From IMG/VR virus record IMGVR_UViG_3300027833_001621, positions 1 through 54,115 of that record: 54,115 nt of DNA, one strand, 5' to 3'. Below are positions 1-52,747 of this stretch, one piece after another. Below the pieces are notes generated by a model that did not search any database, was not told where the DNA came from, and saw nothing but the letters and a program-made list of their open reading frames with translations. How positions within the stretch are numbered: position 1 is the first letter of the stretch; each line of letters starts with the position of its first letter. This DNA is from a virus (Duplodnaviria; Caudoviricetes). Made by a program: the position numbers and the translations under genes.

Positions 1-146
1 TTTCGACTGCCAACATGCAATCTATATCAACTAGTGAGCCCAATTTGTTTGGTGGCTTCCACACTCTGGTGTGTCAATCAATATGTACGTGTGCTTCTAT
101 ACGAGAGCTTTTTCCACAGCGGTATTTTTAATCTGGCCCGCCAACC

Positions 147-596
147 TTAGGTGTTGGAATGTTTTGCCTTGATATGATGTTCTAGCAATGCCTGTTTGAG
201 TTTGTCTGACCCGCCTACTCTAACATTAATGATACCGTTGTAGTAATCATCTGTTTCAAGTACTCGCCTGTCAAACTGCTCTCGTGCCTCTATGTAGGAC
301 ATTTCGCCCCTACCTTTACATAGGTATAGTATTTCTCTTGTGAAGTGTTTTTCGCCTAGTGCCTGTACGTCTGCGTTTAGTCTGTCTGAACTACCATAAT
401 AAGTTTTCCAGTCTGACTCTTTATAGCCTCGTCTTTTATTTTTTCTGCCTTTAAGTGGTGGCTTAGTGGTTTTAAATTTTGCTAGTTTTTTGCCTACGTA
501 CTTTTGTCCAGTTTTCTTATTTGTGATTAGGTAAACAAAGCCTTCATACTCATCTGGAATACTATCTACTTTTTTACCTTTATAAGTCCACTGCAT
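147..596 (-). CDS. GIY-YIG family endonuclease (Seg-like, free-standing)
   Basis: 149 aa. GFVYLITN...KYVGKK is the GIY-YIG motif, followed by YYGSS, a conserved Glu in SYIEARE and YYN, as in T4-like phage Seg-type nucleases. Confidence 0.8.
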   Translation of the reverse strand: MQWTYKGKKVDSIPDEYEGFVYLITNKKTGQKYVGKKLAKFKTTKPPLKGRKNKRRGYKESDWKTYYGSSDRLNADVQALGEKHFTREILYLCKGRGEMSYIEAREQFDRRVLETDDYYNGIINVRVGGSDKLKQALLEHHIKAKHSNT

Positions 597-600
597 GAAG

Positions 601-607
601 TACTTAT
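601..607 (-). promoter_or_regulatory. Putative late promoter variant ATAAGTA, 4 nt upstream of the GIY-YIG ATG
   Basis: Minus strand reads ATAAGTA-cttc-ATG(596). One mismatch to the ATAAATA motif upstream of the structural genes; no Shine-Dalgarno present. Confidence 0.4.
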
Positions 608-816
608 TGTTTGCCTTGTTTTTCTGCCTGCTTCTTGGCTTGATACGTTTCGTGTATCTCGTCCATTCTTAATTTAGATAACTTTCTTATTTTTCGTAAC
701 CAGCTGCGACTTGACATATGTGTACGATGAGATTTACGTTTCTCAAATGCTTCGTTTGCCTTAAAATATTCTAAGTATGCCTTAGTCAATTGATCATGAA
801 TATCGTCTTCAATCAT
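604..816 (-). CDS. Small basic helical hypothetical phage protein
   Basis: 70 aa. Start overlaps the hemC stop by 8 nt. Lys/Arg-rich, no recognisable motif. Confidence 0.7.
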   Translation of the reverse strand: MIEDDIHDQLTKAYLEYFKANEAFEKRKSHRTHMSSRSWLRKIRKLSKLRMDEIHETYQAKKQAEKQGKQ

Positions 817-1552
817 AATATACAGCCTCTAACTTTATAGGATTGTCGCCACTTGCATAACCTGCAACTTTTGTAGTACAATCTCCGCCTATGCCTTTTA
901 ATAATGCTCTTTCTAATTTTGCTTGCCTGTATGTTAGATCGTGATTTATTTCTTTGATTATATCACTGGACATAAGTCCTTTAACAGTTTGCAATGCAAT
1001 TATACCTTGTCCTACAGCTGGCACAATCGACAATCTAGTATATTCTCTATCAATGCCAAGTGCTTGAAGTCCAGCTTCTGCTAGTATTATAGCATCATAA
1101 TCGCCGTTGTCAAGTTTTTCTAGTCTAGTATCTATATTTCCTCTAATAGGTTTAATAACAACATTTAGATTAGAATATAATTCTTCTAGCTGTGCTTTGC
1201 GTCTTGGGCTACTAGTGCCTAACACACAGCCGTCAAACACATTACCTAATAATACATCGTGTGGGCTGTTACGTTCTAGTACCGCACTAATTTCTAATAG
1301 CGGGTGTTCAACATCGCCCGGCATATCTTTTAAACTATGTACAGCAACGTCAATAGTACCATTTAATAATTCTTGCTCTAGTGCATTACAAAATACACCT
1401 TTGCCTCCTATTTCATGTATAGGCACATCAGGATTTAAATCTCCTGCACTTTTAATAACAACTATTTCTGTATCACAAGAAAGTTCATTGCATACTCGTT
1501 CTGCATATGCTAATGCAAGTTTACTTCCTCTTACGCCTACACGAACAATCAT
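809..1552 (-). CDS. hemC: Hydroxymethylbilane synthase (porphobilinogen deaminase), C-terminally short
   Basis: Motifs RGSKLA, GGKGVF, AVHSLKDMP (catalytic Asp), GTSSPRR, IRGNIDTRL, PAVGQG and cofactor Cys in GGDC. ATG at 1552 overlaps the hemF TGA (ATGA), so it is preferred over the track start at 1558. Confidence 0.93.
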   Translation of the reverse strand: MIVRVGVRGSKLALAYAERVCNELSCDTEIVVIKSAGDLNPDVPIHEIGGKGVFCNALEQELLNGTIDVAVHSLKDMPGDVEHPLLEISAVLERNSPHDVLLGNVFDGCVLGTSSPRRKAQLEELYSNLNVVIKPIRGNIDTRLEKLDNGDYDAIILAEAGLQALGIDREYTRLSIVPAVGQGIIALQTVKGLMSSDIIKEINHDLTYRQAKLERALLKGIGGDCTTKVAGYASGDNPIKLEAVYYD

Positions 1553-2334
1553 GACCACCTCACAGTTGGAGGTAAACTCATTAGTATAGCATCCATGTTG
1601 CCTCCGGTCTTAAAACCAAAGCGTGTTCCGCGATCATAAAGTAAATTAAACTCTACATAGCGTCCACGTTTAATTTGTAAAGTATCTCTTTCAGATTGTG
1701 TATAATCTTTATCTAATGTAGGAGTAACAATGCTTTTAATTAAATCATTAAATGTTTTACCTACATCTTTTACAAAGTCAAAGTTCATTTCTTTAGGATC
1801 ATAATATTCAAAAAATATTCCACCAACACCTCTAGTTTCTTCTCGGTGTGGCAAATAAAAATACTCGTCACATGCTTTACTAAACTTAGAATAGTAGTCG
1901 GGATTGTAGTAGTCGCATATGTTTTTTAATTTTTTATGATAAGAATCTTTATCAAACGGCATACACGGTGTAATATCCATCCCACCACCAAACCATTCCT
2001 TGGTACTTGTTTTCATATAACGAGTATTAAAATGCATTGCCGGTGCGTGTGGGTTCCACGGATGTAGTACAACACTTATACCCGTTGCACTATATCCGTT
2101 GTGTTCTTCTGTTCCTGGTATCTCTTTAGCAAACTTAGGATCAAACTCACTAACAATTTTGCTAAAGTTAACAGTTCCTTTTTCGAATACATCACCGTAA
2201 ATAGTTCGGTGTTCTTGTATCCATCCAGGTTTATTTGATCCTGTATGACTTATCATATCGCAATCTAAATTTTCAATAGTTTCGCATATTTCATTTTGAA
2301 GGTTTTTAAACCATTGACTTGCTTCATCAAACAT
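1549..2334 (-). CDS. hemF: Oxygen-dependent coproporphyrinogen III oxidase
   Basis: Motifs VFEKGTVNFS, GISVVLHPWNPHAPAMHFNTR, WFGGGMD, CDEYFYLPHREETRGVGGIF, RGRYVEFNLLYDRGTRFG, ILMSLPP. Confidence 0.96.
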   Translation of the reverse strand: MFDEASQWFKNLQNEICETIENLDCDMISHTGSNKPGWIQEHRTIYGDVFEKGTVNFSKIVSEFDPKFAKEIPGTEEHNGYSATGISVVLHPWNPHAPAMHFNTRYMKTSTKEWFGGGMDITPCMPFDKDSYHKKLKNICDYYNPDYYSKFSKACDEYFYLPHREETRGVGGIFFEYYDPKEMNFDFVKDVGKTFNDLIKSIVTPTLDKDYTQSERDTLQIKRGRYVEFNLLYDRGTRFGFKTGGNMDAILMSLPPTVRWS

Positions 2335-3314
2335 TAATTAAATCGATTCCTAATTGTTTCAACAAAATGTGTTACATGTTCTGTTGGTGTAGTTTTTGTA
2401 ATGCCGTGTCCTAAGCCACACACCCAACCAGTAGTGTTAACACCTTCTAATGTTTCTAGCCATTTGTCAAGTTCGTACTCAAACAATTTACGTTCTAACA
2501 ACATGTGAGCTTCATTAAAATTACCTTGCACAAATCCATTAGTGTATGTGTTTAATGTTTTAGGTAAGTCAAGTGTACTATCAATGCCAATGCCTGACCA
2601 GTTCATCTTTTTTACTTTAGACAAACTATTAGTTGGAAGTCCTCGAGTATAGTATCCTACATTGCCAATATCTGTAATAGATTGTAACATTGGCAAGTAT
2701 ATGTTATCATGATAATTTTTACTAATGTTTTCTAAGCCGCTATCAAGTATCATAACAACTTCAGCCCCTGCTAATTTTTGTGCTCTAATACTATCTTTTA
2801 TTAGTGGAATTATTACTGTTCTAAGATATGTAGATTTAAAATCATTGCTTACTTTGTTAGGCCCAAGTGCATAGTTAAGTAAACTCCAAGGTCCGCCAAC
2901 AAATCCAATTAAACTTTTACTATGAGGAAGTGCTTCTCTTGTTGCTTCAACAGCATTGCTCTGAAAATTGATATGTTTGAGCGCACGACCAACATCGACA
3001 TACTGTTCCCAGTTTTCTTCGCTAAGGTGTGTTTCAAATTTAGGACCTGGGTCAAACTTTAATGGAAACCCTAATCCTTCTAAGTGCCATAGTATATCAC
3101 TAAACAATATAGCAATATCAAAATCAAATTGTTTAATAGGTAGCATAGCAACTTCGCTTGCTAGTTTTGGTAATTTACACATTTGTTCAAATGTAAATTT
3201 TTCTTTCATGTCCATATACCCTGATTGGTATCTGCCTGCTTGTCGCATCATCCAAATTGGCGGACATTTTTGTTCAACTCTATTTAAAGCGTTTTCAAAT
3301 TTTATGTTTGTCAT
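2334..3314 (-). CDS. hemE: Uroporphyrinogen decarboxylase
   Basis: Motifs PIWMMRQAGRY, AILFSDIL, LIGFVGGPWSLLNY, VQGN, GLGHGI. 326 aa. Confidence 0.95.
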   Translation of the reverse strand: MTNIKFENALNRVEQKCPPIWMMRQAGRYQSGYMDMKEKFTFEQMCKLPKLASEVAMLPIKQFDFDIAILFSDILWHLEGLGFPLKFDPGPKFETHLSEENWEQYVDVGRALKHINFQSNAVEATREALPHSKSLIGFVGGPWSLLNYALGPNKVSNDFKSTYLRTVIIPLIKDSIRAQKLAGAEVVMILDSGLENISKNYHDNIYLPMLQSITDIGNVGYYTRGLPTNSLSKVKKMNWSGIGIDSTLDLPKTLNTYTNGFVQGNFNEAHMLLERKLFEYELDKWLETLEGVNTTGWVCGLGHGITKTTPTEHVTHFVETIRNRFN

Positions 3315-5083
3315 TCTATAATATCGATATCATTCTCGTAACTTGTAAATCCATTTTCTTTGATAACTTTCATAACGTGATTAACACGCCCTACTAATTC
3401 ATCTTTGTGCGAGATAAGGTAAACATTCTTGTCGCCTTCTCTACCCATCTTTTTAAGAACACTTAGAGAATTTTCAACACCTGCGGTATCCATACCACTG
3501 TCAATAAGCTCGTCAATAAACATCAAGTTAATCTTTTGATATAAACTCTCCCATACATCTCTAAATGCAAAGCTCATACCAAGTATAAGCCTGTTGCGCT
3601 CGCCTCTTGATAAGTTATCAAAATCTAAATCTTGACCAAGTTGCGTAATTTCAACAGCTAAATCATTTAAGAAAACAACTTGATGCGGTAATCCTAGTTT
3701 ATCTAAGTAATAAGTAAGTCTATTGTTTAGATACGCCAAGTTCTGATCAATGATCTTCTTTCTAATGAAGCTATCTTTATTAGTTAGCAATTTTAACAAG
3801 AAATCTTGATGTTCTTTAAATTCGGTTAAGGCATTTACAGGTGTCCAGTCAATTTCTTGTATTGCAGACTCTTGTAGTTCATCAATTTGTGACTGATAAG
3901 GATCAGTTTCGTCCTTCTTTGCTTCCCATGCTTGCTTCAGACTATCAACATTTTGTCTATGATCGTATGCTTCTTTAGCTGTTTCATAAAATGTAGTAGG
4001 CTTGCCATTGATGTCGCCTATTGTAGTTAGTGCATTTAATACTTCAGATCTCTTTGTATCAACCTCAGATGCATATGTTATTGCATCTTCTAATTCTTTG
4101 TCTTTACGACCTGCAATCTCTGCTTTTTTGTCTGCATGTAACTCTTGTCCGCATGTATAACACGTTGCATCATCAAGATCTAAGATGTCTTTTTGTGCTT
4201 TTTCTACAGACTTGGTAGCACGTAGTAGTGCTGGTTCTAATGTGCTTAATTCTTTTTTAAGAGCCAAAATAGCATTGTTATGTTCAGACCAATTTGACAA
4301 CTTTTCATGCAATTCAAGTTCATTTTCAATGTCTAAATGCTCTAATTCGGCGATTGCATCTTTTAACTTCATTGTATCAGTAGTGCGTTTAGATAGCCAT
4401 GCTTTTTGATTGCTTTGTAAACTACTAATAGTAGTTTCGATCTTACTATTTGCACTTTGAATAGCATTAATCTTTAATGTTTCTTCTGTAATAGAATCCT
4501 TAGTTTGTTTAGTTTGTTCTTTTAGTGCATCGGCCTTTTCGCTAAGGATAGTAATACCAAGTAACTGTTCGATAATAGCACGTTGATCGTTTTGCCGCAT
4601 ACTCAAGAACGGTTCTGTGTATGTGTTTAGTGCAACGATATGCTTGAACATGTCATGACTCATATCTAATAAGTCGTTAATGTATTCTTGTGTCTTACGA
4701 CTATCGCCTTGCGACTCGTCTGTCATCTCTTGTTCTTGATCGTTCACATAAAACTTTAATAAGTTAGGTCCGCGACCACGTTCAACTCTATAATCTACAT
4801 TATTCTTTTCAAAGTGTAATGTAACCAACATGCCTTTACTGTTAGTTTTATTAATTAAGTTGTTAGCTCTGATGTTTGTAAGAGCTTTGCCGTACAACGC
4901 ATACGATAGTGCATTAATAATAGTAGTCTTGCCTGTGCCGTTACGTGATCCGCTATCGTCCCCGCCTTGGTCTAAGTTTTCGCCGAGTACAAGTGTTAGT
5001 TGTTGCTGATTAAAGTCAACAGCTTGGGTTTGATTGCCCACACTCATAAAGTTTCGTACTGTGAGGTCTTTAATTTTTATCAT
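3311..5083 (-). CDS. gp46: Recombination endonuclease ATPase subunit (T4 gp46 / SbcC / Rad50-like)
   Basis: Walker A NGTGKTT, coiled coil with CYTC zinc hook, signature LSRGE, Walker B LMFIDE, H-loop ISHK. Confidence 0.93.
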   Translation of the reverse strand: MIKIKDLTVRNFMSVGNQTQAVDFNQQQLTLVLGENLDQGGDDSGSRNGTGKTTIINALSYALYGKALTNIRANNLINKTNSKGMLVTLHFEKNNVDYRVERGRGPNLLKFYVNDQEQEMTDESQGDSRKTQEYINDLLDMSHDMFKHIVALNTYTEPFLSMRQNDQRAIIEQLLGITILSEKADALKEQTKQTKDSITEETLKINAIQSANSKIETTISSLQSNQKAWLSKRTTDTMKLKDAIAELEHLDIENELELHEKLSNWSEHNNAILALKKELSTLEPALLRATKSVEKAQKDILDLDDATCYTCGQELHADKKAEIAGRKDKELEDAITYASEVDTKRSEVLNALTTIGDINGKPTTFYETAKEAYDHRQNVDSLKQAWEAKKDETDPYQSQIDELQESAIQEIDWTPVNALTEFKEHQDFLLKLLTNKDSFIRKKIIDQNLAYLNNRLTYYLDKLGLPHQVVFLNDLAVEITQLGQDLDFDNLSRGERNRLILGMSFAFRDVWESLYQKINLMFIDELIDSGMDTAGVENSLSVLKKMGREGDKNVYLISHKDELVGRVNHVMKVIKENGFTSYENDIDIIE

Positions 5084-6090
5084 AGTTCGTTGTAAATGTC
5101 CAATAGCATCTTCTTATTGAAGTTGTCTGAGTCGATTGCGGCAATTTCACCAGCAACAATTTGATCGACACTTTCAAATTGTTGAATATCTAGTTCTGTA
5201 CTAATTTCTTCTAATTGTTTTTGTGGAATTAAACTAATTTCACGACACTTGTATTGATTAATAAAAGTTTCTTTAATAAAACTTGCTTCTTCATAGCTAA
5301 TAGGTAAGTCTAAATTAACACGCAAGTACATATTAGGCTTAATAAACGAATCTGCTTCGTCTATTAGTCTACTAAGTTTAACTGTACGGTATTTAGGACA
5401 ATCTGGCCAGTCGAGGTACACAGGTTCTGCATTATTTTCTCTATCAAGTATCATCATACCACGTTCGTCATCCCATGCATCTGCATAGTTGTGCGGAAAT
5501 GCATTACCTAAGTAATGTACTACACCTTGTTGCTGACGTTTGTGGAAGTGTCCGCTAAAAACATAAGACTGATTAGCAAAGTCTTCTGCTCTAAGCTCTC
5601 CGTGATCAGGCATTTGCACCATAGCGTTCATATAGAAGCTAGGTAGTTCAAAGTGTCCAAACACATACTTGCTTTTTAGCTTGCGTAGTTTCTTCCACTC
5701 GTCTCCTACAAGCCAAGGTACAATAGTTACGTCTTCAATTGTAGTAATTTCGTCTACAAATGTAATACCTGGAATGTGTTTTGCAAATGCTGTACTATTA
5801 ACATCACGCTTGTCTTTGTAATACAAGTCATGGTTACCGTCAAAGAAGAAAAACTGCTCAAAAGCAGCCCCTAACTTTTCCATACTACGGATTGTTGCAT
5901 CCATAGTTGTAAGATTCAAACTGTTTCTGTTGTGATGCCAGTCTCCGCAGAAAATACCAGTTTCACAACCGGCAGCTTTTGCTTGATCTATGTACCAATC
6001 AATAAAGTCTTCACAGTCTTGATTGTGTACTTTACTATTGCCTTTTAGACCAAAGTGGATGTCAGTAAAGACAGCTGCTTTCTTAAACAA
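5080..6090 (-). CDS. gp47: Recombination endonuclease nuclease subunit (T4 gp47 / SbcD / Mre11-like)
   Basis: Metallophosphoesterase motifs DIH, GD, GNHD, GH, SGHFH. TTG start with GGAG upstream; adjacent to gp46. Confidence 0.93.
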   Translation of the reverse strand: MFKKAAVFTDIHFGLKGNSKVHNQDCEDFIDWYIDQAKAAGCETGIFCGDWHHNRNSLNLTTMDATIRSMEKLGAAFEQFFFFDGNHDLYYKDKRDVNSTAFAKHIPGITFVDEITTIEDVTIVPWLVGDEWKKLRKLKSKYVFGHFELPSFYMNAMVQMPDHGELRAEDFANQSYVFSGHFHKRQQQGVVHYLGNAFPHNYADAWDDERGMMILDRENNAEPVYLDWPDCPKYRTVKLSRLIDEADSFIKPNMYLRVNLDLPISYEEASFIKETFINQYKCREISLIPQKQLEEISTELDIQQFESVDQIVAGEIAAIDSDNFNKKMLLDIYNEL

Positions 6091-6118
6091 ATTCTAATCT
6101 CCATTATTATATACTTGT

Positions 6119-6147
6119 ATAATACACTTGATTCAACAAGATGTCAA
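6119..6147 (-). promoter_or_regulatory. Sigma70-type promoter for the gp47-gp46-hemE-hemF-hemC operon
   Basis: Minus strand TTGACA (6147-6142), 17 nt spacer, TATTAT (6124-6119). The -35 overlaps the stop codon of the late sigma gene. Confidence 0.75.
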
Positions 6148-6992
6148 GTAGTTTTGGCGTTTTTAACTTTTTCAGCAATATCATGCTCTCTTTTTTGAGC
6201 TGCTTCCCATTCTGCGTTATGTTGTCTAGTATAACTAGGATTCATATCGTTCATTTCAAGAATATCGTCTCTAATGTTTTGATTGCGCTTTTCTAAGTTA
6301 ATAACACGTACAAAACTATTAGTAACTGCCGCTGTATAATAAGCAAATGGATTGTTTGACTTTGATTCGTCAAACTGTAAGCCAATTTGTGCTAACTGTA
6401 GGATTGCTTGGCCGCGCATTTCATCATTGTAAGTGTATCCACGTACATTGCCTCTTGTTGCATACCTTTCGCACAGTTTAATCCACATCATAGCAAGTTT
6501 GTCAGTTGCTTTAGCATGTTTCATACTAAAGTTGCCGTTTTCCATACCACCTTGCCAGTGACTTTTACCAACACAATGTAATTCGCCTTCTTCGTCAAAC
6601 TTATAATGTTGAAACGGTGGAAAATTTAACTTCACTCTAGTATCTGCTACTGTTTTAGGATTCTTTTTGCGTCCTGGTTCTTCCGGAATGTGATCAAATG
6701 TCATAATACGAAAGATTATTTCTTCTTTTGTAATTTTTTTGTAGTCTACTTCGCATTGCGCCTGCTTAACCTTTTCGCCTGCCATCTTACGTTCAGCATA
6801 ATCAGCATCGCCTAGACGTTTTGCTTTGTTACGTTTAGCTTCTGCAATGGTTCTGATGTTAATTTTGTCAATATCGGGCAAAATAATATCAAATTGGTTA
6901 AAGTCGTTGTCTACAAAACTAGAAAACCTTGATTTTGATTTGTGTATCTCTTTTAAAAGATCTTTGTTGTTTAAGTAATTTACTTTTCTCAT
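6144..6992 (-). CDS. gp55: Late transcription sigma factor (T4 gp55-like), enlarged
   Basis: N-terminal NYLNNKDLL and core RGYTYNDEM...FDESKSNNPFAYYT...FVRVINLEKR match gp55. ATG at 6992 has GGAGA upstream; the track start at 7043 is the TTG of the -35 box. Confidence 0.85.
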   Translation of the reverse strand: MRKVNYLNNKDLLKEIHKSKSRFSSFVDNDFNQFDIILPDIDKINIRTIAEAKRNKAKRLGDADYAERKMAGEKVKQAQCEVDYKKITKEEIIFRIMTFDHIPEEPGRKKNPKTVADTRVKLNFPPFQHYKFDEEGELHCVGKSHWQGGMENGNFSMKHAKATDKLAMMWIKLCERYATRGNVRGYTYNDEMRGQAILQLAQIGLQFDESKSNNPFAYYTAAVTNSFVRVINLEKRNQNIRDDILEMNDMNPSYTRQHNAEWEAAQKREHDIAEKVKNAKTT

Positions 6993-7014
6993 ATTTTCTC
7001 CAGTGATTATATAT

Positions 7015-7043
7015 ATTATAATATACTCTGTTAATAAAGTCAA
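7015..7043 (-). promoter_or_regulatory. Sigma70-type promoter for the late sigma gene
   Basis: Minus strand TTGACT (7043-7038), 17 nt spacer, TATAAT (7020-7015). Confidence 0.8.
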
Positions 7044-7044
7044 C

Positions 7045-7050
7045 TAAATA
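7045..7050 (+). promoter_or_regulatory. Putative late promoter TAAATA for the tail/baseplate operon
   Basis: TAAATA 19 nt before ATG 7070, with AGGAGA RBS in between. Core of the T4 late consensus TATAAATA. Confidence 0.6.
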
Positions 7051-7069
7051 ATGTATATAGGAGACACAA

Positions 7070-7879
7070 ATGGCAAACAACCCACAAAGTAGTATAGAAA
7101 ACTTAGGCGGTAGCGTAATCAGTGCCGCTGAAGGTGTAGTTGATACAATTATAACTAAACCTATACAAAGTGTAACTGACAGTATTTCTGATACTGGCTT
7201 TGGTAAAGCATTACGAGCAATTGGATTATTACCAGGTGCTGTTCCTACAGCAGGTGTTGGATTTACAGCTGCAAATTGGGGTTCTAAAACTGACCTTGAT
7301 TGGCGTGTTAGATTATCAGTTCCGTCAACATATAAAACAAGTCCAATTTTACAACCATTACTTGAAACTGATGGATTCATGTTTCCATATACTCCTCAGA
7401 TAATTATGGAACATAGTGCTAACTATAATTCACTACATCCTACACATAGTAATTATGCCTTTCCTGCTTACCAGAACAGCCAAGTGAACGCTATGACAAT
7501 CATTGGAGACTTTTTTGTTGAAAACGAAATGGAAGGTCGCTATTGGGTAGCAGCAACACATTATTTAAGGTCTATAACAAAAATGGCTTATGGTGCTAGT
7601 TCTAATGCAGGTTCTCCACCTCCAGTTGTTAAGTTAAATGGTTATGGAGATTATGTCTTTAAAGACGTACCAGTTGCGGTACAAATGTTTACAGTTGAAT
7701 TACCAAACGATGTTGATTATATTCAAGTTGGTATCGGAGAAAATGGTACTTGGGTACCTACACGTAGTTCTTTTTCAGTTGTTGTACAACCAATATACAG
7801 TAGAAAAAGCGTAACTGATTTTAGTTTAGATGCATTTGTAAATGGCGCATATGTAGTTGATAAAAAAGGATTTATTTAA
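7070..7879 (+). CDS. Putative baseplate tail-tube initiator/cap protein (gp48/gp54-like)
   Basis: First gene of the baseplate cluster. FPYTPQI and GSPPPVVKLNGYG motifs are typical of contractile-system tube-initiator proteins; precedes a LysM/gp53-like gene. Confidence 0.55.
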   Translation: MANNPQSSIENLGGSVISAAEGVVDTIITKPIQSVTDSISDTGFGKALRAIGLLPGAVPTAGVGFTAANWGSKTDLDWRVRLSVPSTYKTSPILQPLLETDGFMFPYTPQIIMEHSANYNSLHPTHSNYAFPAYQNSQVNAMTIIGDFFVENEMEGRYWVAATHYLRSITKMAYGASSNAGSPPPVVKLNGYGDYVFKDVPVAVQMFTVELPNDVDYIQVGIGENGTWVPTRSSFSVVVQPIYSRKSVTDFSLDAFVNGAYVVDKKGFI

Positions 7880-8187: not shown

Positions 8188-10587
8188 ATGGCAACAACAC
8201 CATCTGGAAATATTATTACAACATCTTTAAACAATGCGGCAACTACTGTAACCTCGGGGGTTACTAACACAGCAAATATAGTAACTGGTGAAGTAACTGG
8301 GCTTGCATCTGGAATTATAGGCGGTGCTATCAATCAGGCTATTGCACCGGTAATTGATATTGCATCAAAAGGCAAACAGGTTTATGATCTAGTAACTAAC
8401 CCAACACTAGGCGGCGCCCTAGCTTTACTAGGTAGAGGATTTCCGCCTTATAGAAATGAATTAGATAAATTTGCAAGTTACAATTATATTTTTACACTTG
8501 GTGCGTTAACAAATTTAGAATTAAATTTTCCACTAAGTTATAGAACAGTTGGTCCGCTAATTAAAATAATTAAAAGTGGCGGAACAGGCGGAAACAAAAT
8601 TCCTACAATTTATGAATTAGACGGACAAGTAGAATATTTTATTGAAGATGTTGAAATTCAAAGTCACCTCGCGCCCAATCCAGGAACAAGATTAAGTAAC
8701 GCTACTGTTATTGACTTTAAAGTAATAGAGCCATACAGTATGGGACAATTTTTTCATTCTTTAAGAACTGCGGCACTAGTAGCAGGCCATCCTAATTATT
8801 TACAAGCACCATTTTTATTAAGTGTTGGCTTCATTGGATATGACGATGATGGAAATGTGCAAGAACCTTTTTTCAGTAAAAGACATATACCTATTAAATT
8901 TGTACAAGCCGACATGGACGTTACTGAAGCAGGAGCGGTATATGATGTTAAGTGTGTGCCTTACAACGAAAGTGCGTTAACCGACGAAATTGACAAAGTA
9001 AATACTGACACTGTGATAAAAGGAAGAACAGTTGCAGAAGTATTACAAACTGGTGCTGAAAGTTTAACAGTTAAACTTAATACACTAGAAGTTGCTCAAG
9101 TTAATGCAAAACAAAAACCAGCAGAAGATTATTATGTTATTAGTTTTCCAAAAGGTGGCGCATTAGAATCAGTCGCGCCGCTCGGTGCATCAGCAACACA
9201 AGGAGCCACTGCAGGTAAAGAGCAACAATTATACGAAAGTATTCGAGGAACAGGAGCAGAAGTTCCGGATAACTTTGCCGATCAATTACAACAATTAAGT
9301 GGTACTACTACATTAGGAGCTCCTTTAGCTGCATCATTACAAGAAGCGGCTAATACCTCTATTAATGCAATAGGCTTACAAAAAGTAAACCCAGCAGATT
9401 CTTCAGGATCAGTAACACCTGGTAATGTTGCACCTGGCGATGCTGAAAGTGAAGACGAAGAAGGCACAATGGTTGCAGAAAGAATGGCAGCAGGCGATGG
9501 TGATGCAGAAACATTTACATACCGAGACGGCACAAGTATAACTAGCATGATTGAAGATGTAATATTATCTAGTGATTGGGGTCGAAATGCTATTAGACAA
9601 AAACAATCTGCTAAAGGTGAATATGAGTGGTTCAAAATACATACCCATGTTTACAATAGCTCTAGTTTATTTGGCGGCCTTGTTACAGGTGCTTCACCTA
9701 AAGTTTATGTATTTAGAGTAGTTCCATACACAGTACCGGCATCTATATTTTCTGGACCTAATACCCAAGGTGTGTTTAATGCACTGGCAGCACAATCTGG
9801 TGCAATAAAAGCATACAATTATATCTACACAGGACAAAATAGCGACATAATTAAATTCGATTTGCATTTTAATCAAACGTTTTATACAGGAATGCAAGCA
9901 ACACGTTCTCAAAAAATGATGAGTCAAATTTTTGGCGGAGCATCTTTATCAAAAGAAGAAACTGCCCAAGATTTTGCAACATCGAATACTGGAGGAACTA
10001 ATCCATTAACAGGTAATCCTGAAACTGGTGCGCCAACAACGTTATCAACTACTGTACCAAATCAAGTAAGTGGCGGCGGCGGAAGAGAAGACGCAAGTAC
10101 TTCAGTTGCTAAAACTTGGAACAACAATCTTATTAATACTGATAGAGATATGATTACAGTTGATTTAGAAATTAACGGAGATCCGTATTGGCTAATGGAT
10201 GCAGGCCTAGGCAATTATTTAGGCATTTCGAACCCACTACAGCCCGGCATAACACTCGAAGGTTCTTGCAATCCGGTAAATGGCACAATTACTACAGTAT
10301 TAAATTTTAGAACACCACTGGACTATGACGGTAAAGATGGCTTTGTAAAATATCCATTGGGCGGATTCTTGCCACTAGCTATGTTTAGCGGAGTGTATAG
10401 GACTATATATGTTACTAACCATTTTAAAAATGGTAAGTTTACGCAGACATTAAATTTAGCAAGAATAATGAATCAAGACCTAACACCGACAGCAATAGCA
10501 GGTAGTTTAATTAGTGCATTTAAGGGATCAAGTGTTGGACAAGCAATTGGTCTAGGTAACGACGAAAACGAAATGAGACCTTCATAA
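8188..10587 (+). CDS. Putative baseplate hub protein (gp27/gpD-like)
   Basis: 799 aa between gp53 and gp5. C-terminal DLEINGDP...FSGVYRTIYVTNHFKNGKFTQTLNLAR resembles hub-protein C-termini. Confidence 0.6.
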   Translation: MATTPSGNIITTSLNNAATTVTSGVTNTANIVTGEVTGLASGIIGGAINQAIAPVIDIASKGKQVYDLVTNPTLGGALALLGRGFPPYRNELDKFASYNYIFTLGALTNLELNFPLSYRTVGPLIKIIKSGGTGGNKIPTIYELDGQVEYFIEDVEIQSHLAPNPGTRLSNATVIDFKVIEPYSMGQFFHSLRTAALVAGHPNYLQAPFLLSVGFIGYDDDGNVQEPFFSKRHIPIKFVQADMDVTEAGAVYDVKCVPYNESALTDEIDKVNTDTVIKGRTVAEVLQTGAESLTVKLNTLEVAQVNAKQKPAEDYYVISFPKGGALESVAPLGASATQGATAGKEQQLYESIRGTGAEVPDNFADQLQQLSGTTTLGAPLAASLQEAANTSINAIGLQKVNPADSSGSVTPGNVAPGDAESEDEEGTMVAERMAAGDGDAETFTYRDGTSITSMIEDVILSSDWGRNAIRQKQSAKGEYEWFKIHTHVYNSSSLFGGLVTGASPKVYVFRVVPYTVPASIFSGPNTQGVFNALAAQSGAIKAYNYIYTGQNSDIIKFDLHFNQTFYTGMQATRSQKMMSQIFGGASLSKEETAQDFATSNTGGTNPLTGNPETGAPTTLSTTVPNQVSGGGGREDASTSVAKTWNNNLINTDRDMITVDLEINGDPYWLMDAGLGNYLGISNPLQPGITLEGSCNPVNGTITTVLNFRTPLDYDGKDGFVKYPLGGFLPLAMFSGVYRTIYVTNHFKNGKFTQTLNLARIMNQDLTPTAIAGSLISAFKGSSVGQAIGLGNDENEMRPS

Positions 10588-12530: not shown

Positions 12531-15500
12531 ATGTCGTCAACAGATAGACAAAATAGATTATTATTAGCAGAAGATTGGAAGAGAGTCTACCAGTCATTTA
12601 GAAACGCAGATTTTCAAAGTTACGACTTTGACAATTTACGCAGAACTATGGTCCAGTATCTAAGGGAAAATTATCCTGAAGATTTTAACGACTATGTTGA
12701 ATCCAGTGAATACCTTGCACTGATAGATCTTATTGCATTTTTAGGTCAAAATATTTCTTATCGTATTGATCTAAATGCTAGAGAAAATTACCTAGAACTT
12801 GCAGAGCGTAGAGAATCAGTTCTCCGTTTAGCACGTTTGCTTTCATACAATCCAAAGCGAAATCAACCTGCTAACGGATTACTTAAAATTCAAAACATTA
12901 GAACTAGTGAAGAAGTTAGAGACAGTAATAATGTTAACTTACAAGGTCAAACTATAACTTGGAATGATCCTGCTAACAGTGATTGGTATGAACAATTCAT
13001 CAAAGTGATGAATACAGCATTACCTGTTAATGGAACATTTGGTCGTCCTGCAAAGAAATCAGTTATTTCAAATGTTGACACTGAACAATATAGATTTAGT
13101 AGTACTAATACTGATGTTCCTACGTACCAATTTAACAAAAATATTGACGGCAGAGCTGTGCGCTTTGAAATAGTATCTACAGACATTACAGAGACTATTA
13201 AAGAAGAAGCACCGTTTCCAGGAAACAACTTTGCTATGTTATATAGAGATGATGGCAAAGGTCCTACAAGTTCGAACACAGGATTTTTTAGTCACTTTAG
13301 ACAGGGTGTATTAGACCAAGGTATATTTACAATTAATGATTATGCATCTAATCAAGCCGTTGCAATTGAAACTCCGCAAATTAATAATTCTGATGTTTGG
13401 TTATATAGTTTAGATAGTGTAGGTAACGAAAAAGAATTATGGTCTAAAGTTGAATCCCTGCAGGGCAACAATATTATATACAACAGTCTTAACAAAGATA
13501 ATAGAAATGTATATTCTGTACTAACTAGAGTTGACGATAGAGTTAGCTTAGTGTTTAGTGATGGAGTATTTGGAAATATTCCAACAGGTCAGTTTAAGAC
13601 TTATTTTAGAACTAGTTTAAACGAAAGAGTAATTATTACTCCTAAAGATTTTAGAGGAATAACAATTACAGTTCCTTATCTATCAAAGCGTAATAAAACA
13701 GAAACTCTTACAATAACTTATAGTTTACAATATACTGTTGATAACAGCACTAACAGCGAATCAACAGCATCAATTAAACAAAATGCTCCAACTACATACT
13801 ATACACAAAATAGAATGGTTACTGGTGAAGATTATCAAATTGCACCATTAGGAATTAATCAACAAATTGTAAAGGTTAAAAGTGTTAATAGAGTATCAAG
13901 CGGAATTAGTAGATACTTTGATCTAGTAGACGCTACTAGTAAGTATAGTAAAACAACACTATATGCAAATGACGGTGTTGTTTATAAAGAAACCCAAACT
14001 AAAAAGGATGGATTTTCTTTTACAACTAGAACTGATGTAGAAGGCGCTGTTGAAAACACTATTGTACCAATTTTAAGTGATAAGAAAATTAGAAATTATT
14101 ACTTTGATAAATTTAATAAAATTATAACAAGAGACTTAGGTGTTAACTGGGTACAAACTACAAAAGATACAAATTTATCTACAGGCTATTTTAAGAACAT
14201 TGAAGATGTTCCGTCAACATTAGGTAAATTTACTGGATCTATTTTAAGTATTGTTAAAGTAGGCTCATTAATTAAAGTAATTGCTCCAGGATATGTTGCT
14301 AAAGCTAATCCGGCAGATATTGACACATCAACTAATCACTTTAATTCAAAAGGCGAATTAGTTAATGGAACAGTAAAGCTATTAGGTGACACTTATTATA
14401 AATGGGTAAAAGTTGTTAGAATTAACGGAACTGGATTTGAACCAACAGATGACGGCGCAGGTGCTGTTATACTAAATGATGTTATTCCGTCTGGAGCAAT
14501 ACTATTTGAAATTAAACCACCACTAGCTAATAACTTAGAATCAGGTGTTAAACAGCAAATAATTGATCAAATATTTTCGTACAAAACATTTGGTTTACGA
14601 TTTGATCAAGTTGCTGCAGAATGGCGCATTGTTACAGAAAATAACTTATCACTAGGAACAGGATTTAGTACAGGTAAAACTGGCGATGTTACAAATCAAA
14701 ATCTTGATGCAAGTTGGTTAGTTCTATTTGAAACAAATGGCGAACGATATACTATTACATACCGTTCAATGAGATTTGTTTTTGAAAGTGATAACGAAAT
14801 GCGTTTTTACTATGATTCAAGTGACAAAATATTTGATAACAAAAGCGGAAAAATTGTTAAAGATACTATTACAGTATTAAACATTAATACACAGCCAGAT
14901 AACCCTGCACCATTTACTCAAGATTTTAATTGGGAAATTGTTGATGCATATAGAGACGTAGATGGCTATGTTGATAGTAAAAAATTAGAAGTAAGTTATT
15001 TTGATGACGACGAAGACGGCGTTGTAGATGATGCAGATTTGTTTGAAGAAATTGTTCAACCAGAAACTAACACTACTAACAAGTACATTATCTTTGAAAA
15101 AGTTACTACAGCAGACGGTGTAGAAGATTTTAATTATCTTCCAAACGATAATGATTCAATTATTATTTTAAATTCTAAAACTGAAGTTGCTCCGTTTAGC
15201 ACATACAATGATCAACAAATATTCTATTACATTGACACTGATGTATTTGAGATATTAGACAAATCGGCACTTAGATTAAATATCACAGCTGATTACAAAG
15301 CAAGAGTAGGCAGAAATAACTTAAAGTTCCGTTATATTCATGCTGCAAGTTCTGAGTCTAGAATAGATCCTAGTGCAAGTAATATTATTGATATGTATTT
15401 ACTAACTAGAAACTACGACAATAACTTTAGACTTTGGTTGCTCGAACAGTCTCAAACAAAACCGTTACCACCAAGTAGCGATCAGTTGTTTATTGAATAC

Positions 15501-16100
15501 GGTGCAGAGTTAAACAAAATTAAATCATTAACAGATGAAATTATATATCATCCAGTTAAGTATAAAATACTATTCGGTAATGAAGCGGATCAAGAATTGA
15601 AAGCTAAATTTAAAATTGTAAAGAACGCTAACAAAGTATTAAACGATAACGACATTAAGACAAAAGTAATTACAGCAATTAATCAATTTTTTGCTTTAGA
15701 CAATTGGGACTTTGGTGAAACATTTTACTTCTCTGAATTATCAGGATACGTAATTAACGAACTTGCTCCTGACGTGTCGTCATTTATTCTTATACCAGTA
15801 CAAGAAGATCAAAATTTTGGTAGCTTGTATGAAATCAAATCAGAAGCAGACGAAATTTTTATAAGTGGTGCTAGTGTAGACGATGTTGAAATTATTGATG
15901 CTATTACAGCTTCAAGATTAAAAGCATCAGGAAATGTTGTAACAAAATCTACAACAATAAATGCTGGAATACAAAGTTCAGCATTTACTGATACATCGAC
16001 CCCTATTAATACAACAACTTCTACAACTTCTACACCAAGTAGTTCGAGTAGTTCAAGTAGTTCATCAGGCAGTTCAAGTAACGGAGGATATAGTTACTAA
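12531..16100 (+). CDS. gp6: Baseplate wedge subunit gp6-like (baseplate J family), extended
   Basis: DFDNLR...LIDLIAFLG...RESVLRLARLLSYNP, LVFSDGVFGNIP, ESTASIKQNAP...QNRMVTGEDY. 1189 aa with a Ser/Thr-rich tail. Confidence 0.88.
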   Translation: MSSTDRQNRLLLAEDWKRVYQSFRNADFQSYDFDNLRRTMVQYLRENYPEDFNDYVESSEYLALIDLIAFLGQNISYRIDLNARENYLELAERRESVLRLARLLSYNPKRNQPANGLLKIQNIRTSEEVRDSNNVNLQGQTITWNDPANSDWYEQFIKVMNTALPVNGTFGRPAKKSVISNVDTEQYRFSSTNTDVPTYQFNKNIDGRAVRFEIVSTDITETIKEEAPFPGNNFAMLYRDDGKGPTSSNTGFFSHFRQGVLDQGIFTINDYASNQAVAIETPQINNSDVWLYSLDSVGNEKELWSKVESLQGNNIIYNSLNKDNRNVYSVLTRVDDRVSLVFSDGVFGNIPTGQFKTYFRTSLNERVIITPKDFRGITITVPYLSKRNKTETLTITYSLQYTVDNSTNSESTASIKQNAPTTYYTQNRMVTGEDYQIAPLGINQQIVKVKSVNRVSSGISRYFDLVDATSKYSKTTLYANDGVVYKETQTKKDGFSFTTRTDVEGAVENTIVPILSDKKIRNYYFDKFNKIITRDLGVNWVQTTKDTNLSTGYFKNIEDVPSTLGKFTGSILSIVKVGSLIKVIAPGYVAKANPADIDTSTNHFNSKGELVNGTVKLLGDTYYKWVKVVRINGTGFEPTDDGAGAVILNDVIPSGAILFEIKPPLANNLESGVKQQIIDQIFSYKTFGLRFDQVAAEWRIVTENNLSLGTGFSTGKTGDVTNQNLDASWLVLFETNGERYTITYRSMRFVFESDNEMRFYYDSSDKIFDNKSGKIVKDTITVLNINTQPDNPAPFTQDFNWEIVDAYRDVDGYVDSKKLEVSYFDDDEDGVVDDADLFEEIVQPETNTTNKYIIFEKVTTADGVEDFNYLPNDNDSIIILNSKTEVAPFSTYNDQQIFYYIDTDVFEILDKSALRLNITADYKARVGRNNLKFRYIHAASSESRIDPSASNIIDMYLLTRNYDNNFRLWLLEQSQTKPLPPSSDQLFIEYGAELNKIKSLTDEIIYHPVKYKILFGNEADQELKAKFKIVKNANKVLNDNDIKTKVITAINQFFALDNWDFGETFYFSELSGYVINELAPDVSSFILIPVQEDQNFGSLYEIKSEADEIFISGASVDDVEIIDAITASRLKASGNVVTKSTTINAGIQSSAFTDTSTPINTTTSTTSTPSSSSSSSSSSGSSSNGGYSY

Positions 16101-19100
16101 TGGCATACGACAAAGATCAAAACGAATTTCCACTTCCGGGTGAAGATCCGCAACGCAGACAAAGTGCTAGACATCTGCCTAAATATTTTAGAACAGATAA
16201 AAATCAAAAGTTTTTACAGTCTACATTGGACCAGCTATTACAGCCAGGCGTTTCTGAAAAAGTTAATTCGTTTGTAGGTAGAAAAACTGCAAAAGCATAT
16301 AATGATAAAACTGACAAGTATTTGCAAGATGTTTCTGCTGATAGAACTGACTATCAACTAGAGCCAGTTAGTGTTATTAAAGACGGTTTAGGAAATACAG
16401 AATTTTTAAGAGATTACATGGATTATGTACATCAAATTGAAAACTTTGGCGGCGACAACACTAATCATAGTAGAAACAATAAACAAGAATACTATACTTG
16501 GAACCCAAGTATTAATTGGGATATGTTTTCAAACTTCCGTGAATACTATTGGTTACCCACAGGCCCACAAACAGTAGTTGTTCCTGGAGATGCTAAAGAA
16601 ATTACTAGTACATATACAGTTGAACTACAAAATGCTTTAGGCGATTTATCTTATTTGTTTACTCCTGACGGAGCAACAAACAATCCTACACTAAAGTTAT
16701 ATAGGGGTGTAACGTATAGATTTGAAATTAATGCTGTTGGATCCCCTTTTACATTTAGAACTGCAAGAACACTTGAAGATGAGTTTTTATTAACTACCGA
16801 AGTGTCGCAACAAGGTGTAGAAGACGGTGTTATAGAATTAACATTAGGACCAGGCACACCAAACGAAATTTATTATGTTGCTGACAATGACATTAATATG
16901 GGCGGCCTAATTAGAGTTGCTAACCAATCAGAAGCAAGTATAATTGATGTAGAAGCAGAGATCATCGGTAAAAAATATTATACTACTAAAGATAACTGGA
17001 GTTTAACTAACGGATTAAAAGTACGTTTTGCAGGAGAAGTATTACCTGCAAAATATTCAAACTCAGAATGGTATGTTGAAGGCGTTGGAGACAAAATAAC
17101 TCTTGTAAGTGACATTGATGTTGAAGTTAGTTTTCCAGTTGGTATTGATTTGTTAGTACCATTTGATGATACTATTGACGGATTTGATGCACTCCCTTTC
17201 GGCGCAGCAACAGGTTACCCAAGAGATAAAGATTATATTACAATTAACCGTGCAAGTCCAGACGGTAACTTTTGGTCAAGATATAATAGATGGTATCATA
17301 GAGAAGTAATAGAATTATCTGCAAAAATTAATAATCTAGTTCTTGATATTGATCAAGCACAACGTGCTAACAGGCCCATTATACAATTTGATGCGGGTTT
17401 AAAATTATATAACTTTGGTACAAAAACAAAACCAGTAGTTGACTTACTTGACAACTTTACTACAGATGCATTTAGTACAATTGAAGGTAGTACAGGCTAC
17501 AATATTGATAGTGTTCAACTTGCAGAAGGAATGAGAGTATTATTCCTTAATGACACAGATCCTTTAGTTAACGGTAGAATCTTTGAAGTTAAATTTATTA
17601 ACTTTGCTGGAAGTGGTGTCAACGGACAAATTAGTTTAGTTGAAACAGAAGATAGTTTACCTGTTGAAAGTCAAACTGTTTTAATTACTAGAGGTGAAGA
17701 CTTTGCAGGTACAATGTGGTATTACGATAGTGTCACCTGGAATAAAGCACAAGAAAAAACAGCAGTAAACCAACCACCAGTTTTTGATATTTTTGATGCA
17801 AACGGAAAAAGCTATTCAGATACAACAGTTTATCCTGCATCTAACTTTAGAGGTACAAAGCTCTTTAGTTATAAAGAAGGACAAGGTGTAAATGATACAG
17901 TATTAGGTTTTCCAATTTCTTATAGAAGTATTGAAAATGTAGGCGATATTGTTTTTAACTTTAATTTTAATCAAGATACTACACAATATCAAATTGACGA
18001 TCAAACATATAATATAAATGTTAGTAATGGTTATCTAAGAAAGTATTTGCTATCTAGCAATTATCTATTAGTAGGTGCATATGTTAAAGCAAGTACATTT
18101 AGTAATCAAGATGTAGTATTGCAATATGTTAATGACGGTACAAAGATTAACTATCCAATTAATAGTTATAACAAAAGTGCATTTGTAGAAGATTTAAAAG
18201 TTAATGTAACTGTTGATAATAAAGTTGTATACGAAAATACTGATTATGAAATAGTTTCCACAGCAGACAAAGTAAAGTCGATTAGATTTTTAAATAAGAT
18301 TTCAGAAAATGCAAACATTATAATTAAAACAACATCTGCTACGTCTAAGAATGAAAATGGTTTTTATGAAATTGCTCCAAACTTAGAAAAAAATCCGCTA
18401 AATGCTGATGTTGAAACATTTACATTAGGTGAAGTTACTGATCATGTTAACAGTATTACACAAAATGCTCCAGACTTTGTTGGAGTATTCCCTGGAGTTA
18501 GTAATTTAAGAGATTTGACTAATTTAAGTGTTTATGGTAGAAAGTTTATTAAACATTCTGCTCCGTTAAACCTTGCAATGTTTTCTACATTAGATAAAGA
18601 GTCTAATGTAATTAAATCATTAAGATTTGCTAAAAAAGAATATAGTAAATTTAAAAGAATGTTTTTAGAAAATGCAGAAGTGTTACCGTTTAGTGGATCA
18701 ATAAAACAGCATGTAGATGCAATAATTTCTGAGATTACTAAAGATAAAATTAATACAATGCCTTTCTACTTTTCGGATATGATAGGCTATGGCGCATCTA
18801 TTACAACTACTATAACAATTGAAGATATTGGTACTAGGTTCTATGCACTTACAACACCGTTTGTTTTAAACGAATTAAGTACACGTTCTGTAACAGTATA
18901 TTTAAACGGCACACAGTTATTACACAATCAAGATTATGTCTTTAACACTGAAGGTTATTTAGATGTTACAGCAACTAAACAATTTGGCGACATATTAGAA
19001 ATTAACGAGTATGAAACTACAAATGGAACATATATACCGTCAACTCCAACTAAGTTAGGTTTATTTCCTAAGTACATTCCAGAATTATTCCAGGACGATA

Positions 19101-35428: not shown

Positions 35429-35431
35429 CAG

Positions 35432-37360: not shown

Positions 37361-37368
37361 CAAATCAG

Positions 37369-37375
37369 ATAAATA
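37369..37375 (+). promoter_or_regulatory. Putative late promoter ATAAATA
   Basis: Intergenic ATAAATAC, then AGGGG RBS and ATG 37400. Confidence 0.65.
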
Positions 37376-37399
37376 CTAAGTCGCAATAGGGGTTTATAA

Positions 37400-41099: not shown

Positions 41100-41447
41100 A
41101 TGGACGAAAGATTAGAACAAGCGTTAGACTTTTCAAACTACATGGTTACACTAAACAACCAGCGTAGAGTTATTCATGAACAATTTTTAGAAACTTGCGT
41201 ACATTATTTAAATGGCGGCAAATTTTCTATAACTCGAGATTTAATTACATTTTGCCAAACATTAAAATATAATGAACAAGATAGTGCAATTTTAATTGAT
41301 GATAACAACACTCCGATTGAAGTACAAGAGCTACAGAAATTTTTAGACGACATTCTTGATATTTACTTTACTACATCATATGAATATCTTGATGAGTACA
41401 ATAAAATTAAAAAGAACAGAAAAGTAGAAGGTCTTGTTAATTTATGA
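41100..41447 (+). CDS. Hypothetical protein
   Basis: 115 aa with RBS; stop overlaps the next start (ATGA). Confidence 0.75.
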   Translation: MDERLEQALDFSNYMVTLNNQRRVIHEQFLETCVHYLNGGKFSITRDLITFCQTLKYNEQDSAILIDDNNTPIEVQELQKFLDDILDIYFTTSYEYLDEYNKIKKNRKVEGLVNL

Positions 41448-52726: not shown

Positions 52727-52741
52727 AAAAGGCTGTATACT
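52713..52741 (+). promoter_or_regulatory. Sigma70-type promoter, probably producing a leaderless mRNA
   Basis: TTGACA (52713-52718), 17 nt spacer, TATACT (52736-52741); ATG at 52748, 6 nt after the -10. Confidence 0.75.
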
Positions 52742-52747
52742 ATATAA

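Follow-up and report, generated by a model that had tools for sequence, protein, structure and literature searches.

Known phage genes for tetrapyrrole metabolism sit at the two ends of the pathway, with 5-aminolevulinic acid (ALA) synthase at one end and heme oxygenase and bilin reductases at the other. A viral ALA synthase gene, valaS, often found together with hemO and pcyX, was described from pelagimyophage-like marine contigs, and according to the available text of that report one freshwater viral ALA synthase was active and a viral ALA synthase complemented an E. coli ALA auxotroph (Wegner et al., 2024; PMC11480375). The introduction of the same paper names the cyanophage genes ho1, pebS and pcyA, encoding heme oxygenase and bilin reductases, as the other group (PMC11480375). 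Here we describe a cassette of three genes from the middle of the pathway, hemE-hemF-hemC, in the virus record IMGVR_UViG_3300027833_001621 (Duplodnaviria; Caudoviricetes), a linear IMG/VR record of 54,115 bases with a CheckV completeness of 12%, which was analysed over its whole length and is called the window below.

The main text of the valaS report makes no mention of hemC, hemF, hemB or coproporphyrinogen, while the gene maps in its figures and supplements could differ (PMC11480375). Two preprints touch on the same enzymes: as far as their available text goes, HemC, HemA and HemL are among bulk KEGG-annotated viral genes from seamount sediments (10.1101/2024.04.28.591573), and a coproporphyrinogen III oxidase is present in a temperate Nitrosospira phage (10.64898/2026.05.02.722434). 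Two further papers (PMC7674155; PMC7892664) contain none of the heme terms looked for, and another report concerns a methyltransferase in RNA viruses (10.1101/2024.07.04.601995). No description of a phage hemE-hemF-hemC cassette was found in the full-text literature, supplements, figures and most subscription journals aside. A preliminary description of this DNA had stated that no multi-gene synthesis cassette of this kind was known; none has come to light, although the available text of the valaS work shows that a synthesis-side phage gene had already been published (PMC11480375). We consider it probable that the cassette serves a marine jumbo myovirus as an auxiliary metabolic module, organised as an early, coupled operon that would sustain the supply of protoporphyrin and heme.

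The hemE-hemF-hemC cassette and its enzymes

The three genes belong to a minus-strand string, gp47-gp46-hemE-hemF-hemC-orf70-segE, in which most neighbours have overlapping stop and start codons (Table 1); beyond it, virion, baseplate and tail-fibre genes lie on the plus strand. Direct reading of four junctions bore out the earlier claim that the enzymes are joined by start/stop overlaps, with the open reading frames (ORFs) as placed. Stop and start share ATGA at gp46/hemE (3314-3311), TAATG at hemE/hemF (2336-2332) and again ATGA at hemF/hemC (1552-1549), where the hemF stop meets an ATG at 1552, while hemC and orf70 overlap by 8 nucleotides (nt; 816-809). The ORF listing begins hemC at a GTG at 1558 (809-1558, 249 amino acids [aa]). 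Because of the ATGA overlap with the hemF stop, the true start is likely the ATG at 1552, which gives a protein of 247 residues.

Table 1. Features of the minus-strand gene string and its upstream region, with positions in the window.
Feature	Position	Strand	Match or remark
Predicted sigma70-like promoter (TTGACA-17-TATTAT), between gp47 and the gp55-like gene	6119-6147	-	11/12 consensus positions
gp55-like late sigma factor gene	6144-7043	-	phrog_12791, 1.5e-78
gp47-like (SbcD/Mre11-type) recombination nuclease subunit	5080-6090	-	PF00149 and phrog_100, 6.4e-63
gp46-like (SbcC/Rad50-type) recombination nuclease subunit	3311-5083	-	phrog_77, 3.3e-99
hemE, uroporphyrinogen decarboxylase of a divergent viral clade, 326 aa	2334-3314	-	PF01208 URO-D, 2.4e-58
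hemF, oxygen-dependent coproporphyrinogen III oxidase, 261 aa	1549-2334	-	PF01218, 7.4e-84
hemC, minimal hydroxymethylbilane synthase, 247 aa from the ATG at 1552	809-1552	-	PF01379, 1.9e-59
orf70, conserved 70-aa basic, helical-looking ORF	604-816	-	start overlaps hemC end by 8 nt
SegE-like GIY-YIG homing endonuclease gene, last of the string	147-596	-	PF19835, 1.6e-35

The gp46 protein shares 50% identity with its counterpart in PA5oct-like Pseudomonas jumbo phages, 48% with the one in Sinorhizobium phage Phosso and 45% with the one in Agrobacterium phage Atu_ph07. Because these relatives have genomes of 284-490 kilobases (kb), the window is a fragment of a jumbo T4-related myovirus.

That the cassette might be an assembly chimera, or cellular DNA mis-binned as viral, is suggested by the phage databases. 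PHROGs hold no family for HemE, HemF or HemC, and the GenBank phage records gave no true phage match: blastn found nothing, and tblastn with HemE returned 11 records with a best identity of 30.5%, several titled as bacterial and others short and unannotated. Given only these 11 weak records, no isolated phage in the GenBank phage collection shows the cassette. However, the cassette is flanked by phage genes on both sides with overlapping reading frames, G+C content (GC) is uniform at 0.34-0.38 over 1-7000 (0.28-0.41 across the window), and four further IMG/VR contigs (L002, at 99% identity, L086, L088 and L090) show the identical order from gp47 to segE. Of the words sampled from 600-5100, a fraction of 0.78 or more is present in each of 14 public sequencing runs, and two of these runs are possible sources of the window. 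A 2896-nt contig from run X6 spans 477-3372 with 11 differences, and a 1996-nt contig from run X4 spans 899-2894. With contigs from independent runs crossing every junction, an assembly chimera is ruled out, and the probability of chimerism or mis-binning taken together is practically negligible. The junctions on which the preliminary description relied are therefore real, as are the phage flanks; its statement that the locus has no mobile-element scars fared less well, since a SegE-like homing endonuclease gene lies directly downstream.

HemE scores 198.2 bits against PF01208 (cut-off 23.9), covering profile positions 3-345 of 346, and its full length aligns to solved structures of uroporphyrinogen decarboxylase (UROD). 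R24, R28, D73, Y148 and H303, in the motifs RQAGRY, FSDI, NY and GHG, are invariant in 20 members of the clade and align with the matching motifs of the solved structures; we take the active site to consist of the two Arg in RQAGRY, the Asp in FSDI, the Tyr, and the His in GHG. Relatives from marine metagenomes are many (56-88% identity, approximately 325 aa), some of them on contigs of 220-356 kb.

HemF passes both PF01218 (281.3 bits) and NF003727 (310.7 bits, cut-off 297), and its HPxNPHxPxxHxNxR and GGGxDxTP stretches are retained when it is aligned with solved structures. Its C-terminus is not full length, stopping at profile position 271 of 295. Because the HemF of small alphaproteobacterial genomes ends at the same position, 271, the short end is a lineage trait rather than a phage truncation.

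HemC reaches 201.1 bits against PF01379 and, through domains 1 and 2, passes the equivalog TIGR00212 (232.7 bits, cut-off 164). Across 31 viral and cellular sequences, C225, D76, R8, R117, R118, R137 and R143 do not vary, and the cofactor Cys aligns with the GGC of 4mlq; presumably the Cys carries the dipyrromethane cofactor and the Asp and the Arg set are catalytic. Domain 3 is incomplete, with PF03900 at 20.4 bits (cut-off 26) over positions 3-38 of 74 only. An AlphaFold model built from the 31-sequence alignment had a pLDDT of 94.2, whereas a single-sequence run gave 32.6. In this model domain 3 is a hairpin (residues 229-245), and the top Foldseek matches were 4mlq, 4htg and 1pda (E 1e-24 to 1e-23; query-normalised TM 0.82-0.90), so that the protein is predicted to have the porphobilinogen deaminase (PBGD) fold. 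In a library of 1.84 billion cluster representatives, the short form was found in one close cluster only (252 aa, 61% identity) among the best 150 representatives, followed by cluster matches of 276-285 aa and then by ordinary proteins of approximately 290-315 aa. The three enzymes had been called intact, and the catalytic residues that can be checked are indeed kept in all of them, but hemC is C-terminally shortened.

Distribution and origin of the genes

Scanning IMG/VR with an alignment of viral HemE relatives yielded at least 120 encoding contigs, of which 80 were kept for study and their neighbours mapped with phmmer up to 8 kb on either side. hemC was seen in 43 of these 80 loci and hemF in 27, in at least three gene orders. 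At the gp46 locus, for which the preliminary description had proposed a survey, hemE follows gp46 directly in 19 loci with variable company: four have hemF and hemC, 14 have hemC only, and one (L095) has neither. The order hemE-(hemF)-hemC occurs elsewhere in 11 loci (hemF is present in 10, one of which is cut by the contig end before hemC), hemF-hemC-hemE in 13, and hemC-hemE adjoining ribonucleotide reductase genes in two. Far from being a one-off, the cassette represents one of the layouts in which this module recurs across many marine viral contigs.

The gp46-context loci also vary in fine structure. The hemF indel is exact, the TAATG of hemE running directly into hemC codon 2 in L003, and in L095 (8972-9210) hemC has been cut to its first 8 codons by natural loss while hemE, orf70 and segE remain. 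Similarity is mosaic, with the window's hemC nearest to L004 and its hemE nearest to L003. Frequent recombination at the cassette locus is suggested by the combination of a patchy hemF, mosaic similarities and a neighbouring Seg-type endonuclease, and the SegE-like endonuclease may drive both the mosaic pattern and the hemF presence/absence polymorphism. orf70 is present in all 19 gp46-context loci, L095 included; it is strongly basic, its start overlaps the hemC end in a translationally coupled arrangement, and it has no Pfam, PHROG or NCBIfam match. As a candidate for the missing C-terminal part of HemC, orf70 has a fitting length (249 + 70 aa approximate a full HemC), yet it was rejected on account of a Lys/Arg-rich charged sequence that is unlike domain 3 and lacks a family match, and of its persistence in L095, where hemC is deleted.

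These features bear on the idea that the heme genes are passenger morons carried by the SegE-type homing endonuclease, of little benefit and in the course of being lost. The SegE-like gene adjoins in all gp46-context relatives whose contig extends far enough, and the patchy hemF with its precise indel between TAATG and the hemC ATG, the hemC remnant of L095 and the mosaic similarity would all fit. Selection points the other way. Pairwise Nei-Gojobori estimates over gp46-context loci gave a median omega (dN/dS, the ratio of nonsynonymous to synonymous substitution rates) of 0.145 for hemE, 0.066 for hemF (3 sequences) and 0.181 for hemC, compared with 0.054 for gp47 and 0.088 for gp46 among the phage's own genes. 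The cassette genes, for which the preliminary description had called for dN/dS, are clearly under purifying selection and are somewhat less constrained than the nuclease genes. Values of 0.07-0.18 across diverged copies, invariant catalytic residues, and persistence of the module in at least three gene orders and several phage lineages make passenger genes an improbable explanation.

Other heme genes were sought with family profiles over the whole records of 40-41 related contigs, all of which are fragments. ALA synthase (ALAS) above the TIGR01821 cut-off was found in 9/41 records, HemB in 6/40 (283-288 aa, starting at profile position 25-26 of 317), HemJ in 2/41, ferrochelatase (hemH) in 1/41 and heme oxygenase in 6/41. 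Some records combine several of these genes: G023 has ALAS, hemF-hemC-hemE and hemO, G012 has hemE-hemF-hemC, hemJ and hemO, and in G031/L146 a HemB gene at 8972-9823 (+) directly after hemE extends the string to hemF-hemC-hemE-hemB. The 54 kb of the window gave no match to ALA synthase, HemB, HemJ, ferrochelatase, heme oxygenase or HemD. As a separate observation, genes for a phosphoribosyl pyrophosphate (PRPP) synthetase, a fatty-acid desaturase and a class-3 lipase adjoin the viral heme module in L146 (9804-16037), and genes for a Mom-family protein and a CHASE2-nucleotide cyclase protein adjoin it in L100 (10594-15999).

The enzymes could act as annotated and still serve a different end, with bilins, made via viral heme oxygenase and a PcyX-type reductase, as the product in place of respiratory heme, and the cassette as the middle of a viral glycine-to-bilin route. 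The records with heme oxygenase or ALA synthase, and the two that hold several such genes together, are consistent with this, as are the valaS-hemO-pcyX cassettes of pelagimyophage-like marine contigs, whose purpose is called enigmatic in the available text (PMC11480375). However, heme oxygenase was not found in the window's 54 kb or in the other gp46-context records searched, ferrochelatase, which is required before HemO can act, is present in a single related record, and the window's phage belongs to a different gp46 lineage, near PA5oct and Atu_ph07. A bilin route is accordingly unlikely here, and respiratory heme remains the product we favour. A broader picture may be drawn tentatively, in which several marine phage lineages would share a tetrapyrrole toolkit reaching, across lineages, from glycine to heme to biliverdin with the exception of uroporphyrinogen-III synthase, and centred on a phage-specific HemE clade from one streamlined-alphaproteobacterial acquisition and on a minimal 247-aa HemC that would function with most of domain 3 missing; the core in the window would be under early control with the recombination nuclease, and infected cells would run a partly viral pathway.

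The origin of hemE was sought in a sample of 301 alphaproteobacterial genomes, 236 of which had a HemE match, and in a GTDB pattern scan that gave at least 600 stretches, the nearest cellular HemE being the nearest among the matches listed. Only 7 of the 301 genomes, 1.2-1.6 Mb in size, reach 37-49% HemE identity, the rest staying at or below 35% over comparable lengths. The HemE loci of five of the seven have 28-34% GC, and from size and GC we infer that these small genomes are SAR11-like. The nearest cellular relatives of the viral clade lie within heme operons and are the sole HemE match of their genomes, which speaks for a HemE function of the clade. In a maximum-likelihood (ML) tree of 84 HemE sequences, obtained by a short search with SH-aLRT as its single support measure and with the root not established, the 50 viral sequences formed a single clade (SH-aLRT 95) whose sister was the HemE of G253; the viral sequences and G253 are nested among the small alphaproteobacterial genomes and three Bdellovibrionota metagenome-assembled genomes (MAGs), and a long branch splits this whole group from ordinary HemE. 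From this tree, which the preliminary description had called for and which places the viral sequences as a single clade beside small alphaproteobacterial HemE, we conclude that hemE entered phages once, from a streamlined alphaproteobacterial lineage.

The other two genes tell a different story. In G253 and G271 the heme operon combines HemE with HemJ, a HemF of 272-273 aa, HemB or ferrochelatase, and a 502-aa protein that contains HemC; an ALAS-like aminotransferase is encoded close by. The window HemC is 31-38% identical to the fused 502-aa HemC and 40-49% identical to ordinary alphaproteobacterial HemC, and its HemF is 44-54% identical to that of 117 of the 301 sampled genomes, with no outlier and no clear nearest donor. 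A single cellular donor operon for the whole cassette was rejected because the affinities of HemE, HemC and HemF disagree. Since HemC and HemF are without a close donor in the sampled genomes, the cassette was probably assembled within phages and not captured as a block. The 502-aa protein (L185, 10264-11772 [-]; L186, 7040-8548 [+]) deserves mention in its own right: an N-terminal HemC domain is followed by approximately 270 residues without a Pfam match, and HemC-containing frames of 493-576 aa are also present in other searched small alphaproteobacterial genomes and in three Bdellovibrionota MAGs. It may be a HemC fused to a divergent uroporphyrinogen-III synthase.

Expression and proposed role

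A sigma70-type promoter upstream of gp47 had been placed at the head of the string (Table 1). TTGAC(A/T) and TATAAT-like boxes stand at the same place in all 10 aligned related loci, and because the box positions are kept while the spacer sequence varies, comparative support for the predicted promoter is good. No terminator-like site was found on the minus strand between 5080 and 600. Inside hemC, a separate perfect sigma70 consensus at 1086-1113 (-), TTGACA-16-TATAAT with a TG extension (12/12 positions), could drive orf70 and segE on their own. Near-identical contigs in RNA libraries of two studies cover hemC, the hemF/hemC junction and hemE; those of run X15 lie at 471-1159, 1444-1651, 2642-2935 and 2973-3210 (with gaps such as 1972-2439) and those of run X16 at 312-1038 and 2440-2635. 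They are only a hint of transcription.

Taken together, the reading we favour is that host RNA polymerase would recognise the sigma70-type promoter and transcribe gp47-gp46-hemE-hemF-hemC-orf70-segE as one early, translationally coupled unit, the tetrapyrrole enzymes being co-translated with the recombination nuclease. Phage-made HemC would add capacity for converting porphobilinogen to hydroxymethylbilane, HemE would convert uroporphyrinogen III to coproporphyrinogen III, and HemF, with O2, would carry coproporphyrinogen III to protoporphyrinogen IX. ALA, HemB, HemD, protoporphyrinogen oxidase and ferrochelatase would come from the host, unless the remaining 88% of the phage genome encodes some of them. 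The likely benefit is that heme-dependent respiration would be kept supplied during a long infection, after host gene expression declines. Because HemF is O2-dependent, the host would be an aerobic bacterium, a fit with what had been proposed earlier, and it is probably a streamlined alphaproteobacterium.

Several observations weigh against this proposal. The count of promoter-like sites in 1-7600 is 29, compared with 26.3 (standard deviation 5.2) in shuffled sequence, so that the promoter announced in the preliminary description is present, with its position kept in all aligned loci, in a region whose density of such sites shows no excess. RNA libraries may contain DNA, and their contigs give neither strand nor timing. 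The window HemE does not reach the NCBIfam equivalog TIGR01464 (188.2 bits, cut-off 302.95), and on this score it is, by sequence, a divergent HemE; HemC, in alignment and model alike, is without the third strand and the helix of domain 3. Among the 80 loci, 35 show hemE alone within the DNA examined. Neither hemF nor hemC is essential, given that 14 of the 19 gp46-context loci have hemC only and L095 has neither; hemF, and in that one locus hemC, are dispensable in close relatives. A tRNA search meant for host inference found no tRNA gene within the window.

That HemD, the uroporphyrinogen-III synthase, was not found is a further difficulty. Among the 40 related records searched with the HEM4 profile, all of them fragments, not one gave a match, and the family is a divergent one. 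If HemC is raised by itself, the dead-end isomer I could result wherever the host does not have HemD in excess. HemD is not limiting in most cells, and the negative search could reflect this in the host, or a divergent viral HemD could have escaped the profile. A more sinister reading is that HemC and HemE without HemD overproduce isomer-I porphyrins as photosensitisers, hastening host shutdown or lysis. Hydroxymethylbilane cyclises spontaneously to uroporphyrinogen I, and hemE with hemC is the commonest pair, both of which would suit such a role, as would the failure to find HemD. HemF, however, acts on the III isomer and accompanies the pair in 27 of the 80 loci, relatives add hemB, hemJ, hemH and ALAS as expected of a productive pathway, and a viral HemD could be overlooked in a family as divergent as HEM4; deliberate isomer-I production is very improbable. 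The auxiliary heme-supply module put forward in the preliminary description thus keeps its phage context, gene coupling, purifying selection and conserved residues, and has to accommodate the SegE neighbour, the dispensability of hemF and hemC in relatives, and the HemD count.

Neighbouring genes and comparison with known systems

Two features of the plus strand lie apart from the heme genes. Between a baseplate wedge gene (12531-16100; phrog_10646, 5e-297) and tail-fibre-like ORFs (33317-38980), a single ORF of 5525 aa occupies 16100-32677 (+). Its domain matches are weak (TIG and FG-GAP, with CBM_5_12 under its cut-off), and it looks like a giant adhesin-type baseplate or fibre protein. Further on, at 41444-53413 (+), lies a run of tightly packed ORFs. 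Three of them encode radical SAM proteins, at 44579-45961, at 45945-47393 (a match that stays under the Pfam cut-off) and at 48716-49981, the last also having a SPASM domain, while the ORFs around them have no family match; this run could be a peptide- or cofactor-modification cluster in a phage.

If the heme-supply proposal is true, and with the mid-pathway cassette conserved and widespread, the share of heme synthesis that phages take over would be much larger than so far described. Respiration, the demand for iron and the turnover of pigments would then be affected in infected marine bacteria. Also of interest is a divergent uroporphyrinogen decarboxylase clade common to phages and streamlined alphaproteobacteria, in a setting where HemD was consistently not found. 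The predicted natural minimal hydroxymethylbilane synthase bears on the question of what domain 3 is for. Compared with canonical hydroxymethylbilane synthases (4mlq, 1pda, 4htg; approximately 290-315 aa), the window HemC matches in domains 1 and 2 and retains the cofactor Cys and the catalytic Asp as well as the Arg residues that align with those binding the substrate, but it has 247 aa and a domain 3 reduced to a two-strand hairpin.

At the level of the operon, gp47 followed by gp46 in one unit beside a late sigma factor gene is the T4-type arrangement, which in the window continues into metabolic genes, a small ORF and a gene for a Seg-type endonuclease. The heme operon of the small alphaproteobacterial genomes (G253, G271) likewise holds hemC, hemE and hemF, and among the sampled genomes no cellular HemE stands closer to the viral clade than the one encoded there (46-49% identity); however, it also has hemB, hemH and hemJ, its gene order differs, and the phage set is without hemH and hemJ. 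Among phage systems, the valaS, hemO and pcyX genes are, as far as the available text of that report goes, likewise phage-borne tetrapyrrole genes in marine viral contigs, with the same rationale of maintaining tetrapyrrole supply in the infected cell (PMC11480375). The lineages are shared, since records related to the window carry ALAS and heme oxygenase. In contrast, that work concerns the first step and the catabolic end of the pathway, as judged from the same text (PMC11480375), whereas the window has three mid-pathway enzymes in 54 kb without valaS or hemO. The cyanophage genes ho1, pebS and pcyA are also tetrapyrrole auxiliary genes of T4-like marine phages, but, following the introduction of that paper, they act downstream of heme on linear tetrapyrroles (PMC11480375), while the genes of the window build the macrocycle. 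The cassette is thus of a known kind, the phage tetrapyrrole auxiliary genes, and what is new is that several mid-pathway genes form a conserved module, in which HemC is minimal and HemE belongs to a clade specific to phages.

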